From IMG/VR virus record IMGVR_UViG_2606217107_000013: a stretch of DNA of 4,890 bases; one strand, given 5' to 3'. Positions 2,239-4,890 of the stretch are shown here, one piece after another. The first letter of the stretch is position 1; every line of letters begins with the position of its first letter. The DNA comes from a virus. Taxonomy: Duplodnaviria > Heunggongvirae > Uroviricota > Caudoviricetes. The notes below the pieces were generated by a model. The model saw only the letters and a list, made by a program, of their open reading frames with translations. It did no database searches and was not told where the DNA came from. A program made the position numbers and the translations under genes.

Positions 2239-3864
2239 ATGCCCTATATCGATATCACCACGATGCGTGGGATGATGCCGCGCGTTGTGACATCCATGCT
2301 GCCCGAGCATTCCGCTGTACTGGCGGAGGACTGCCATTTCCGGTTTGGTGTTATTACACCAGAACGTCAGATATCCGGGGTTGAGAAAACATTCACAATT
2401 AAGCCAAAAACAATTTTTCATTACCGTGACGATTTCTGGTTTGCATGGCCGGATGTGGTGGATGTGATCCGCAGTCCGATCGCTCAGGACCCCCACGGGC
2501 GTATTTACTACACTGACGGGCGTTTTCCTAAAGTGACGGATGCGACCATTGCCACAAAAGGGGGCGGGAATCACCCGACATCATCGTATCGTCTGGGGAT
2601 CCCCGCGCCGACGACAGCTCCTGTCTGTACTGTTCAGCAGGGCGGTGATGTTTCTGACGATAACCCGAATGATGATGAAACCCGGTTTTATACGGAAACC
2701 TTTGTCTCAGATTATGGTGAAGAAGGTCCGCCAGGTCCGGCGTCTCTGGAGGTAACACTCCGTACTCCGGGAACTGCGGTACAACTGACGCTGGCTCCGG
2801 TGCCATTGCAGAATGCCAGTATTAAACGTCGTCGTATTTATCGTTCTGCCTCAGGGGGAGGAGAAGCCGATTTTTTACTCGTGGCTGAACTGGATGCATC
2901 CGTGCTCAGTTACACGGATAAAATACCGGCGAAAAACCTTGGACCTTCGCTGGCGACATGGGATTACCTGCCGCCGCCAGAGAATATGACAGGCCTTTGC
3001 CTGATGGCTAACGGTATTGCCGCCGGGTTTGCCGGTAATGAAGTGATGTTTTCGGAAGCGTATCTGCCGTATGCATGGCCGGAAGTGAATCGTCACACGA
3101 CGGCAGAAGATATTGTAGCTATCTGTCCGCTCGGAACGTCACTGGTGGTGGCGACAAAGGGTGAGCCTTATCTGTTCAGTGGTGTATCGCCTTCCACAAT
3201 TTCCGGCTCCAGAATTCCTTCAATGCAGGCGTGTCTGAGCAGGCGGAGTATGGTCGCGATGGAGGGCTTTGTGCTGTATGCAGGAACAAATGGCCTGGTG
3301 TCTGTTGATGCAAACGGTAATGCCGCTCTGGCGACGGAGCAGATTATTTCGCCGGAACAGTGGCAGAGTCAGTTTAATCCGGCCTCCATTGTGGCTTATC
3401 CCTGGCGTGGTGAATACATTGCCTGTTACACGAAACCGGATGGTAAGCAGGATGTGTTTGTCTTCAACCCGGCAGGTATGGATATCCGCTACCTCAGTAC
3501 ACCTTTTGACTGCGCATGTGTTGACCTGGTTAACGATGTTATGCGGGTGGTATCAGGACAAAACATGTCTGCGATCGCCGGAGGGAGTTTGCCGTCGACA
3601 ATCAGATGGCATTCAAAGGTATTTTCCCTTCCGGAAAGAACCTCTTTCTCCTGTCTCAGGGTGAAGTCTCCGACGCCAGAGCGGGTGGGAATTACTGTGC
3701 TGGCAGATGATGTTCCGGTGATTCACCTTGCACCTGGAAGCTTTTCGGGAAGCGTTGTGAGATTACCTGCTGCAACCGGGCAAAACTGGCAGATACTGGT
3801 TTCCGGTTTTGGTCAGGTTGAACGTATTACACTCAGTACATCGATGTCGGAGCTGCCGGTATGA
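2239..3864 (+). CDS. Putative phage tail or tail-tip structural protein, family not recognised; translationally coupled to the downstream J-like fibre gene
   Basis: 541-aa ORF. Start chosen at ATG 2239 (MPYIDITTMRGMM...), which has AAAGGA at 2227-2232 six nt upstream; the ORF-track start at 2161 is a GTG with no Shine-Dalgarno and lies in the intergenic region. No signal peptide or transmembrane segment is evident. The composition is G/S/T/V/P-rich, typical of beta-rich virion proteins. The stop TGA (3862-3864) overlaps the next gene's ATG (3861-3863) as ATGA. The structural role is inferred from context only. Confidence 0.8.
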   Translation: MPYIDITTMRGMMPRVVTSMLPEHSAVLAEDCHFRFGVITPERQISGVEKTFTIKPKTIFHYRDDFWFAWPDVVDVIRSPIAQDPHGRIYYTDGRFPKVTDATIATKGGGNHPTSSYRLGIPAPTTAPVCTVQQGGDVSDDNPNDDETRFYTETFVSDYGEEGPPGPASLEVTLRTPGTAVQLTLAPVPLQNASIKRRRIYRSASGGGEADFLLVAELDASVLSYTDKIPAKNLGPSLATWDYLPPPENMTGLCLMANGIAAGFAGNEVMFSEAYLPYAWPEVNRHTTAEDIVAICPLGTSLVVATKGEPYLFSGVSPSTISGSRIPSMQACLSRRSMVAMEGFVLYAGTNGLVSVDANGNAALATEQIISPEQWQSQFNPASIVAYPWRGEYIACYTKPDGKQDVFVFNPAGMDIRYLSTPFDCACVDLVNDVMRVVSGQNMSAIAGGSLPSTIRWHSKVFSLPERTSFSCLRVKSPTPERVGITVLADDVPVIHLAPGSFSGSVVRLPAATGQNWQILVSGFGQVERITLSTSMSELPV

Positions 3865-4890
3865 CAAAAAAACCGTGGCGCGCAGGAAAGGATTTATCTG
3901 CGGTTGTGGAAAATATGGAGATAGGGACAGGACAACGTGGCGATGGTCGTCATGCTTTTGTAACCCGTGAAGAACTGGTCGGTCTGAAGCTGGCCCGTCG
4001 CCGGACTTCAGGTGGTGCCGCATATGCCCTTAATCCGGGGATTGAGATGGACAGCTCTGTAATGGTCGTTGATTTCCCATCGAAACCTCAGAATTTTAAG
4101 GCGACAGGGGGATTTGGCTCGGTACTGCTTGAATGGGATATGCCGAATTATCGCGGTCATTCACTGACTGAAATCTGGCGGGGTACGGAGGATGACCTTG
4201 CTGATGCCGTGCTGGTTGCCACGACGCCGGGGCAGGTTTACGGTGATCCGGTTGATCCGGGCTGGTCGGGATTCTACTGGATACGCTTTGTTAATGCAGC
4301 GGGAGTGAAAGGGCCATGGAACGCGGTAAAAGGCACTCCCGCACAAACCCAGATAAGCGTTCAGGCCATTATTGACCAGATCAAGGAGGAGGCTGCAAAG
4401 TCACCGGTGGTGGAAGAGCTGCGTAAGGAAATAAAGAATGCTCAGGGGCAGGCAGTAAAGGACGCGGCAATCGAGACGACGGAAGTTGTGGGTAATCTCA
4501 GGGAAGAAACACTGAAAACTATCGGTGGTATTGATACCCGTATTACGGGGATCAATAAGTCAACCAGTGAAGAGCTTAATAAGGTAAATGAGCGCATCAC
4601 TAAACTGGATAAAGAAGGCGGTGAGGCCTTCCTTGCGATGTGGTCAAAAAAAGCGGGAGTTGATGGCATCACTGCGGGGATCGGGATTGTCGCCGGAAAA
4701 GACAGTGAAGGCAGGCCTGTAAGTCAGGTTGCAATTTCTGCGTCACAGCTGTTTGTCTTTGACCCGAATAATCCGGATAACACCGCCTATCCGTTTGCGG
4801 TCTCTGGTGGAAAAGTTGTCATCCCCAAAGCGATGATTTATGACGCGGTGATTGAAACACTGGTGTCGCGGAAGGTTGTGGCGGATGAGG
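3861..4890 (+). CDS. Central tail fibre / host-specificity protein, lambda J-like FN3 and C-terminal region (5' partial; continues past window end)
   Basis: Frame-0 reading from ATG 3861 is open for 343 codons to the window edge. GGAG (3849-3852) lies 8 nt upstream. The translation MTKKPWRAGKDLSAVVENMEIGTGQRGDGRHAFVTREELVGL... contains a fibronectin-III-like segment (SKPQNFKATGGFGSVLLEWDMP...GFYWIRFVNAAGVKGPWNAVKGT), then a charged helical linker, then AFLAMWSKKAGVDGITAGIGIVAGKDSEGRPVSQVAISASQLFVFDPNNPDNTAYPFAV. From memory this aligns with the lambda J region [58 protein letters not shown], sharing AMW, AGIG, EG, SQ and F-DP-N. It is missing from the ORF track only because there is no stop in the window. 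Confidence 0.85.
   Translation, partial: MTKKPWRAGKDLSAVVENMEIGTGQRGDGRHAFVTREELVGLKLARRRTSGGAAYALNPGIEMDSSVMVVDFPSKPQNFKATGGFGSVLLEWDMPNYRGHSLTEIWRGTEDDLADAVLVATTPGQVYGDPVDPGWSGFYWIRFVNAAGVKGPWNAVKGTPAQTQISVQAIIDQIKEEAAKSPVVEELRKEIKNAQGQAVKDAAIETTEVVGNLREETLKTIGGIDTRITGINKSTSEELNKVNERITKLDKEGGEAFLAMWSKKAGVDGITAGIGIVAGKDSEGRPVSQVAISASQLFVFDPNNPDNTAYPFAVSGGKVVIPKAMIYDAVIETLVSRKVVADE

Follow-up and report, generated by a model that had tools for sequence, protein, structure and literature searches.

The probable needle gene of a Sepvirinae-type E. coli prophage and the incidental run of seven adenines behind its start codon

The open reading frame that begins at position 3861 of the window (the whole stretch of 4,890 nt analyzed here) is very probably the 5′ 81% of the central tail fiber, or needle, gene of a short-tailed E. 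coli prophage of the Sepvirinae (933W/Sp5/phi24B type), and the run of seven adenines behind its start codon is simply a by-product of the codon series Thr(ACA)-Lys(AAA)-Lys(AAA), with no switching role. The gene lies on the plus strand at 3861 to 4890, where it supplies codons 1 to 343 of 422, and its identification draws on identity with phi24B, on a match to PF09327 and on pN/pS. In a pairwise alignment, all 343 needle residues of the window match phi24B vb_24B_40 without a gap at 91% identity, and that protein is gp56 in a 2026 cryo-EM preprint (bioRxiv 10.64898/2026.04.10.717836). The counterpart in 933W is L0125, by position, and the one in Sp5 is ORF71 (ECs1233), by domain content and gene order. 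The full-length protein of a close relative among E. coli prophages has 422 amino acids, with the last 79 codons falling outside the window, and full-length relatives of 422 amino acids are 87 to 100% identical; matches to the window come from E. coli prophages and from phages of the Sepvirinae. Four proteins searched against NCBIfam returned no family for any of them. The needle gene of an Stx-type phage is ordinary and already known, both genes of the pair and the likely role of the needle having entered the literature through genetics (2016), bioinformatics (2025) and cryo-EM (2026).

The gene is under strong purifying selection, with an overall pN/pS of 0.126 against phi24B. Synonymous divergence from phi24B is uneven along it, from a pS of 0.76 in codons 1 to 50 down to 0.18 in codons 261 to 343, and this alternation of very high and low values points to a mosaic history. 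In Sp5, ORF70 and ORF71 are both essential for tail formation, and deletion of ORF71 abolishes plaques and lysogenization and removes tail-fiber labeling while leaving heads intact (PMC5155283). The phi24B needle is a component of the virion by both proteomics and cryo-EM (bioRxiv 10.64898/2026.04.10.717836).

Directly upstream, at 2239 to 3864 on the plus strand, is the gene for the nozzle, the hexameric distal tail ring, whose 541-amino acid product is 94% identical to phi24B vb_24B_39 (gp57) and has 933W L0124 and Sp5 ORF70 as its positional counterparts. The assignment as nozzle is that of the phi24B preprint (bioRxiv 10.64898/2026.04.10.717836), and the protein also matches PDB 8jov_A, from an entry with six chains, at E = 6.5e-55. 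A nozzle homologue stands immediately upstream of the needle gene, and contiguous with it, in all 72 related loci. On the other side, phi24B encodes vb_24B_41 (75 amino acids) and vb_24B_42 (205 amino acids), whose sizes match gp55 and gp54 of the preprint; two small genes (93 and 205 amino acids) follow the needle gene in the related prophage, and such a pair is found in 49 to 50 of the 72 loci.

The junction between nozzle and needle genes was read directly from the sequence: the needle ATG at 3861 to 3863 is followed by ACA AAA AAA CCG, exactly as had been claimed in the preliminary description, and the seven adenines occupy 3866 to 3872 on the plus strand, within codons 2 to 4 (Thr-Lys-Lys), starting 2 nt past the TGA of the nozzle gene and thus inside the 10 nt that description had allowed. 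That TGA (3862 to 3864) overlaps the needle ATG in an ATGA motif at 3861 to 3864 on the plus strand, and relatives with as little as 37% protein identity still have an ATGA, GTGA or TTGA overlap. At 3849 to 3852 on the same strand, 8 nt before the needle ATG and still inside the nozzle gene near its end, is a GGAG Shine-Dalgarno motif, and GGAG or GGAA is preserved at this position among the related junctions listed. Together the overlap and the motif fit translational coupling of a nozzle and needle pair, as read from these putative signals.

Codons 2 to 4 vary among relatives. The commonest group in IMG/VR, 31 of 72 loci and including 933W and phi24B, has ACC AGA AAA in place of the tract; other relatives have AGC AAA AAA or ACA AAA AAA, and more distant ones ACC AAA GGT or ACG GCA AAG, so that the tract is not retained across the lineage. 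Among lysine codons in the open reading frames of the window AAA is preferred (42 AAA against 24 AAG). AAA-rich early codons favor expression in E. coli, and one alternative to a neutral by-product of lysine codons is that A-rich codons 2 to 4 were selected for efficient translation initiation, as an A-rich and unstructured start. We regard this as doubtful. The three close variants (ACA AAA AAA, AGC AAA AAA and ACC AGA AAA) are all A-rich, the basic residues at positions 3 and 4 (KK or RK) are conserved, and the tract falls in the loop of the sole, weak hairpin predicted for the start region, which would all agree with such selection. The folding stability of that region is, however, no different from that of shuffled controls (z = 0.49 and −0.01) and gives no sign of selection on structure, constraint on the protein can account for the conservation of codons 2 to 4, and more distant relatives begin MTKGFRAG or MTAKFRAG, with few A's. 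At most, A-richness after the start codon mildly favors initiation.

The protein begins with a module of its own (residues 1 to 73; 3861 to 4079, plus strand), in which residues 1 to 50 are highly conserved and residues 51 to 73 form a variable linker, and for which docking to the nozzle is proposed. Over codons 1 to 50 the pN/pS is 0.024 although pS reaches 0.76, and alignment columns M1 to A45 are invariant or nearly so. The module is N-terminal in 19 of the 20 protein clusters that match it, among them all 13 proteins of 389 to 786 amino acids. The N-terminal peptide quoted previously, MTKKPWRAGKDL...HAFVTREELVGLKLARRR, is correct, and the accompanying suggestion that this segment acts as an adaptor docking onto the upstream protein is supported and has already been published: the segment is a separate conserved module, as the 19 of 20 clusters indicate, and the N-terminal domain of the phi24B needle (91% identical) is anchored in the nozzle lumen (bioRxiv 10.64898/2026.04.10.717836). 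The docking geometry in phi24B comes from an AlphaFold3 model fitted to a map of approximately 10 Å, which does not resolve the nozzle contacts within the N-terminal 166 residues (bioRxiv 10.64898/2026.04.10.717836). The nozzle contact loop given in the preprint as Arg47 to Leu57 was not located in the window, its numbering fitting neither the 541- nor a 567-amino acid protein. When the N-terminal 175 residues were searched for homologues, the matches were limited to fragments of close relatives. The docking, or plug, part of the needle would consist of the conserved residues 1 to 50 and the FNIII-like domain that follows.

From approximately residue 74 onward, the needle shares homology with the part of lambda gpJ that starts at residue 714, an equivalence that, by alignment, would comprise FNIII-2, the α-helical shaft and the β-prism. 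PHROG 31 (central tail fiber J) aligns to residues 71 to 389 at E = 5.9e-26, and the family profile matches gpJ 714 to 920 at E = 6.2e-05 for the stretch and 4.9e-17 for the whole sequence, with gpJ713 constructs matching too and gpJ residue 714 falling at profile position 74. The earlier placement of the J-like region about 75 residues into the protein is thereby borne out, as is the idea of a distal half of J, for which alignment to lambda J had been the proposed check and which had already been published; the domain scheme of gpJ, the gpJ713 construct and a helical shaft from approximately residue 809 are described in PMC11101478. Neither the Pfam families of the hub domains nor Pfam fn3 were detected in the needle at E values up to 1. 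AF2 monomer models, at a pLDDT of 35 for the full-length protein (38 sequences) and 33 for residues 1 to 175 (66 sequences), were too poor to show an FNIII fold, and the putative fold of residues ~74 to 166 (4080 to 4358, plus strand), corresponding to gpJ FNIII-2, is supported by sequence homology to gpJ.

The putative coiled-coil shaft (residues 167 to 260; 4359 to 4640, plus strand) follows the phi24B preprint, in which Val167 to Met260 of gp56 form a flexible trimeric coiled coil and the remainder a β-prism (bioRxiv 10.64898/2026.04.10.717836). V167 and M260 stand at the positions given there in the phi24B row of our alignment and are conserved in the needle, and helices are predicted, at low confidence, at residues 170 to 266 of a 425-amino acid homologue with three extra residues inserted upstream. 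The shaft is the most variable part of the needle, with a pN/pS of 0.26. The C-terminal β-prism (the central straight fiber domain, PF09327) starts at 4641 and runs to the end of the window at 4890 on the plus strand, as indicated by a match to PF09327 (DUF1983) at residues 256 to 332 (E = 4.4e-11) and by alignment with gpJ and with gp56 of Pseudomonas phage DEV. The order of N-terminal domain, coiled coil (167 to 260) and prism is thus found here as well, the last 79 residues being seen in relatives.

By analogy with the published work, the needle would be a trimer, as described for near-identical or corresponding proteins, with its N-terminal domain lodged among the tip domains of the nozzle hexamer so as to close the tail, and it would be shed upon DNA release, as described for phi24B (bioRxiv 10.64898/2026.04.10.717836). 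The prism tip may hold the products of the two small downstream genes, the proposed BamA binders, and receptor binding may cause the needle to detach and the tail to open. The preliminary description had placed a receptor-binding C-terminus beyond the window, yet what lies there is 79 residues of β-prism, and PF12421, the J-type C-terminal Ig-like receptor-binding domain, is absent from the full-length 422-amino acid relative, occurring only in variant relatives of 487 to 561 amino acids. An alternative is that the needle itself, by way of its β-prism tip, is the BamA-binding receptor protein and not a scaffold for the small proteins; we consider this unlikely. It would draw on the homology to the lambda J central fiber, which does carry a receptor-binding domain, on some close relatives (500 to 561 amino acids) in which PF12421 is fused to the same body, and on the absence of the two small genes from the listed loci with such variant ends. 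The 422-amino acid form, however, ends without PF12421, and the phi24B preprint reports extra density at the needle tip and considers that the surface of the prism is too simple to bind BamA specifically (bioRxiv 10.64898/2026.04.10.717836), while modeling favors a downstream "hand-like" protein as the binder (PMC12309495). In phage DEV, receptor use is genetically determined by gp54, which together with gp55 is carried on the homologous gp56 (PMC12892993); J-like fibers with separate small receptor-binding proteins are described in both of these studies (PMC12309495, PMC12892993). The two small downstream proteins, which are encoded outside the window, have no sequence match to any solved chain.

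We return to the seven adenines, which the preliminary description had proposed as a site of slippage and phase-variable expression. In this reading the run is a slippage-prone contingency element, acting at replication, transcription or translation, that would turn the needle on or off and so make tail completion phase-variable, and we consider it very improbable. The features that suggest it are a homopolymer immediately 3′ of the start codon and an off state that would exist, since any change of length or slip at the tract leads, by frame translation, to a peptide of 20 or 36 amino acids; neither alternative frame, however, gives a long product. Known contingency loci usually carry tracts longer than seven A's, and seven is short for such an element. 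The tract is also missing from the commonest relatives (the 31 of 72 loci with ACC AGA AAA); the run exists here because codons 2 and 3 are ACA AAA instead of ACC AGA. Where it is present its length is stable: counted from consensus assemblies, the tract is in frame in 22 of 23 contigs from IMG/VR, in all 24 from metagenomes and in all 28 complete E. coli genomes, the last scored on the best matches to an 87-nt junction query by comparing matched span with query span, with no net indel taken as in frame. The proposed check of tract length across related genomes therefore yields an in-frame tract in 74 of 75 tract-bearing sequences from the three collections and a 1-nt deletion in one, the A6 contig from IMG/VR (L058, the same as L202), whose only indel in 4.3 kb, relative to two 99.8% identical relatives, is this one. 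An exact match to the junction pattern was absent from the species-representative genome collection.

Nor is the run peculiar to the junction. A scan of the window found a second A7 run within the needle gene at 4646 to 4652 on the plus strand (TCA AAA AAA, Ser-Lys-Lys, codons 262 to 264), so that it is nothing unusual for a Lys-Lys pair in this gene to give an A7 run, and a third at 2057 to 2063, beside a terminator-like hairpin. Three runs of at least seven A's where mononucleotide shuffles predict 0.26 (P = 0.0035) amount to an enrichment across the window, which makes the tract at 3866 to 3872 less special, not more. Sp5, moreover, cannot make infectious particles without its counterpart of this gene (PMC5155283), so that a prophage in the off state would be dead. 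A narrower version, that in the Sepvirinae subset with ACA AAA AAA the run might be a low-frequency, reversible on/off site of the needle gene and the A6 contig a snapshot of the off state, is equally remote; were switching real, some lysogens would release non-infectious particles, with toxin still released in Stx-bearing relatives. The run resembles homopolymer contingency loci in being a mononucleotide run in the 5′ coding end at which a 1-nt change abolishes the product, but it differs from them in being short at 7 nt, in not being conserved in the lineage and in showing no length polymorphism in 75 sequences bar one deletion. As a by-product of its codons, the A7 run can be set aside as a candidate switch. 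The weakest alternative, which the preliminary description had named, is that the gene is merely a 5′-truncated pseudogene remnant of a full-length lambda-type J, and it has next to no chance of being right and is ruled out by conservation and selection data: the lack of anything equivalent to gpJ 1 to 713 (the hub domains) and the location in a prophage would accord with it, but podoviruses have no tail-tip hub and hub domains are therefore not expected, a 422-amino acid open reading frame with its own conserved N-terminal module is maintained in 72 loci and many protein clusters, the pN/pS of 0.126 speaks against it, as do the essential Sp5 counterpart (PMC5155283) and the presence of the phi24B protein in the virion by proteomics and cryo-EM (bioRxiv 10.64898/2026.04.10.717836).

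For annotation, the two "hypothetical / tail tip fiber" genes of the window can be renamed after the 933W/phi24B-type podoviruses, as nozzle and as central needle. A question for the whole family, and one that bears on the spread of Shiga-toxin phages, is the identity of the BamA-binding protein at the needle tip and the way in which binding frees the needle.

Among known systems, the tail needle of P22 (gp26) and Sf6 is likewise a trimeric axial fiber that plugs the distal ring of a podovirus tail with its N-terminus and is expelled at infection. The likeness is a functional analogy only: no homology search in this analysis gave a sequence relationship, and P22 gp26 is almost pure coiled coil, without an FNIII domain or a J-type prism. 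This comparison has also been drawn in PMC12892993. With the C-terminal part of lambda gpJ (from residue 713) the needle shares a homologous FNIII-2, a helical shaft and a β-prism, and both would be trimeric axial fibers that close the tail and respond to receptor binding (PMC11101478 for lambda). In contrast to gpJ, the needle lacks the hub domains (gpJ 1 to 713) and FNIII-1, has a longer coiled coil and its own N-terminal module of approximately 73 residues, and in its 422-amino acid form has no PF12421; it would dock non-covalently in a podovirus nozzle, whereas gpJ is part of the tail-tip hub of a siphovirus.

A second comparator is DEV gp56 (PDB 9ze4_N), the short tail fiber of the gp56-gp55-gp54 receptor-binding fiber, which matches the needle at E = 4.4e-12 in stretches at residues 79 to 194 and 257 to 421. 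Its residues 31 to 150 align to needle residues 79 to 194 and its residues 271 to 427 to the prism, where the last strand also matches (...VYDQNGRLAVRIGRL versus ...VFDQAGKLRVHIGNL). The two proteins are similar in size (429 versus 422 amino acids), and two small genes follow the fiber gene in both phages. DEV gp56 has approximately 30 residues before the FNIII-like region compared with approximately 78 here, so that it lacks some 48 residues of the N-terminal module, and the DEV fiber is lateral, beside a separate plug protein, gp74, with LptD as the receptor (PMC12892993), whereas the phi24B-type fiber itself is axial in the nozzle. The closest systems are phi24B gp56, 933W L0125 and Sp5 ORF71, which have the same full length of 422 amino acids. 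The place after the nozzle gene and the ATGA overlap are shared with phi24B and 933W, and the downstream pair of small genes, together with lom, is common to phi24B and the related prophage compared. The needle described here differs from the phi24B type in codons 2 and 3, which are ACA AAA (Thr-Lys) in place of ACC AGA (Thr-Arg), and its host prophage carries other accessory genes upstream, among them a YadA/Eib-like adhesin.

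The central tail fibre (needle) gene begins as the preliminary description had it, with ATG at 3861-3863 followed by ACA AAA AAA CCG, and a run of seven A residues (A7) does lie at 3866-3872. Directly upstream on the same (+) strand is the 541-aa ORF of the nozzle protein, the hexameric distal tail ring (2239-3864), whose TGA stop codon (3862-3864) falls within the needle start, such that the two genes overlap as ATGA, and a GGAG motif (3849-3852, +) is located 8 nt 5' of the needle start. The nozzle homologue ends at the start of the needle gene in 72/72 related loci, and RNA folding of the start region against shuffles gave structure neither above nor below that of shuffled sequence. 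Of 5,426 complete E. coli genomes, 533 contain prophages that match the window; 202 phage records, mostly of Stx-converting phages, match it as well. The genome with the best match has the region in a prophage alongside genes for terminase, portal, an N4-gp56-type capsid protein, a tail fibre and lom and one gene of some 2,790 codons, a set that is the late region of short-tailed phages of the 933W/Sp5/phi24B type (Sepvirinae). The needle gene is 422 codons long in that genome, and the window therefore carries codons 1-343. It is orthologous to phi24B vb_24B_40 (91% identity, gap-free), its positional counterpart in 933W is L0125, and the nozzle gene is 94% identical to phi24B vb_24B_39. We equated vb_24B_40 with gp56 of a 2026 preprint (bioRxiv 10.64898/2026.04.10.717836) by residue positions and downstream gene sizes: in the alignment V167 and M260 sit exactly where the preprint places them for gp56, and the two genes 3' of vb_24B_40 have the sizes stated for gp54 and gp55.

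Homology of the needle to the distal part of lambda J, the tip attachment protein, is confirmed, though it is not new. Residues 71-389 correspond to profile positions 966-1286 of 1565 in PHROG 31 ("central tail fiber J"), and positions 74-273 of a 38-member needle family profile align to lambda gpJ 714-920, with recombinant "gpJ713" fragments also matched. The sole Pfam match is PF09327 (residues 256-332), and by domain and profile comparison the needle lacks both the hub domains and the receptor-binding domain of lambda gpJ. Residues ~74-166 are the counterpart of FNIII-2 of gpJ; two AlphaFold2 runs gave no usable model of the needle (pLDDT 35 and 33), so that homology is the basis for the FNIII fold. 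The nearest solved chain in a single-sequence search is its homologue gp56 of Pseudomonas phage DEV, part of a gp56-gp55-gp54 module (9ze4_N, E = 4.4e-12), while the nozzle protein matches 8jov_A (six chains, E = 6.5e-55); for the phi24B nozzle the nearest structural relative was named as Ralstonia phage GP4 (bioRxiv 10.64898/2026.04.10.717836). The suggestion that the gene is a truncated J pseudogene is refuted, and the pN/pS ratio of the whole needle fragment against phi24B, 0.126, indicates purifying selection.

The A7 tract had been suspected of causing slippage and phase variation. Runs of seven A residues occur three times in the window (2057-2063, 3866-3872 and 4646-4652) compared with a mean of 0.26 in mononucleotide shuffles (P = 0.0035); the last is also within the needle gene, again at a Lys-Lys pair, and AAA is the preferred lysine codon (42 AAA vs 24 AAG). 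The tract is thus real, yet not unusual for this sequence. Among 72 IMG/VR loci collected by protein similarity, the gene starts ATG ACC AGA AAA (933W/phi24B type) in 31, ATG ACA AAA AAA in 16, ATG AGC AAA AAA in seven and with ACA and a 6-A run in one (L058), with more distant loci using other codons after the start; these differences are substitutions. A pattern scan sensitive to ACA-type tracts from A4 to A12 recovered 15 A7, seven in-frame AGC-A6 and one ACA-A6 frameshift in IMG/VR, and 18 A7, six AGC-A6 and zero variants in metagenome contigs. With an 87-nt query from the junction, matches came from 28 complete E. coli genomes; every best match covered a span equal to that of the query, hence no net indel. 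The sole tract-length variant found, in these assembled sequences, is the A6 contig IMGVR_UViG_2713896798_000003 (L058, identical to L202; locus ~2500), in which ATG ACA AAA AAC puts the needle gene out of frame, its body moving to the third frame, which is open ~35 codons upstream. Over 4.3 kb no other indel separates this contig from two loci that are 99.8% identical to it, and the deletion is an inactivating mutation if real, or otherwise an error of sequencing. Frames read computationally show that A6, A8 and a -1 or +1 ribosomal slip each lead to a 20- or 36-residue peptide, and no alternative product exists. With substitutions among relatives, nearly constant lengths and such short slip products, phase variation is not supported, and we conclude that the tract, correctly observed but ordinary, is probably a by-product of Thr-Lys-Lys codon choice.

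The proposal that the N-terminal segment is an adaptor fared better. Codons 1-50 compared with phi24B have pS = 0.76 and pN = 0.018 (ratio 0.024), and residues 1-45 show little or no variation in relatives down to ~60% identity, among which residues 51-73 are variable. In an exhaustive search, residues 1-75 matched 20 clusters, N-terminally in 19, and all 13 matching proteins of 389-786 aa have the match at the N-terminus. This pattern is as would be expected of a conserved docking module with exchangeable distal parts and agrees with the phi24B map; together with nozzle adjacency it supports the adaptor idea, which is not new, for the module as a whole rather than for individual contact residues.

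Synonymous divergence is very uneven between 3861-4889 and phi24B (L218:42543-43571), with pS falling from 0.76 over codons 1-50 to 0.33-0.47 in the central part and 0.18 over codons 261-343, the last without a single amino-acid change, a pattern indicative of recombination breakpoints within the needle gene. Within the FNIII-like domain, a tandemly repeated 9-bp unit that codes for (V)DP (4245-4260, codons 129-134, GAT CCG GTT GAT CCG G) differs in copy number among near-identical homologues, giving GDPGWSG, GDPVDPGWSG (the window), GDPVDPVDPGWSG and GDPVDPVDPVDPGWSG in proteins of 419, 422, 425 and 428 aa; here, in contrast to the A7 run, the length polymorphism is real and keeps the frame. 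Related loci and homologues (L049, L050, P0017-P0023, P0045-P0120) share the N-terminal module, FNIII-like domain and prism and have two kinds of end: a 422-aa form with a pair of small genes (93 and 205 aa) after it, past the 3' limit of the window, and a longer form of 487-561 aa, at least some members of which have the lambda-J-type C-terminal domain PF12421. The small genes were detected in 49-50/72 loci, and both are missing from the listed loci with the different end, which suggests that receptor binders fused to the fibre and those encoded separately can replace one another.

The stretch 197-1318 (+), which lies between the genes for the lateral tail fibre and that for the nozzle, encodes a secreted protein of 373 aa whose membrane anchor is of the YadA type (PF03895); the protein has matches to the YadA anchor and to part of EibD, an immunoglobulin-binding protein. 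It is a predicted Eib/YadA-like trimeric autotransporter adhesin, an accessory gene that 933W and phi24B lack at the corresponding position. Beside it in the accessory block are a 176-aa ORF (1407-1937, +), whose only matches are to PHROGs without an assigned function (phrog_6585) and which had no match in a Pfam search, and then a short ORF (1864-2058, +) with a hydrophobic stretch at its end. A strong GC-rich hairpin, GGGGAGCAACATGCTCCCC (2064-2082, region 2057-2090), has an A7 preceding its stem on the + strand, which on the - strand becomes a run of T following the stem, and looks like a minus-strand terminator at the end of the block; its A run (2057-2063) is one of the three in the window.

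The identity and role of the needle gene are already published. Deletion of Sp5 ORF70 or of ORF71, in which DUF1983 and COG4733 were recorded, abolished plaques and lysogenisation, with normal heads and DNA packaging and loss of tail-fibre antibody labelling, making the Sp5 counterpart essential (PMC5155283). In phi24B the nozzle is a gp57 hexamer and the needle a gp56 trimer with a coiled coil (Val167-Met260) and a beta-prism C-terminus, anchored in the nozzle on the basis of a ~10 Å map and fitted AlphaFold3 model; virions lack the needle after DNA ejection, and extra density at the tip was proposed to be the BamA binder, gp54 (204 aa), alone or together with gp55 (75 aa) (bioRxiv 10.64898/2026.04.10.717836). 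Small downstream receptor-binding proteins were likewise proposed by modelling (PMC12309495), and for DEV gp56-gp55-gp54 small-protein receptor binding, to LptD, was demonstrated genetically and structurally (PMC12892993). We propose that needle residues 1-50 together with the FNIII-like domain would form the plug and docking part, that the prism tip would carry the small downstream proteins, which would engage BamA, and that BamA binding may release the needle and open the tail. Such release would be analogous to needle expulsion in P22-like phages. It would also be analogous to the lambda tip, which is opened by a rearrangement of FNIII and shaft (PMC11101478).
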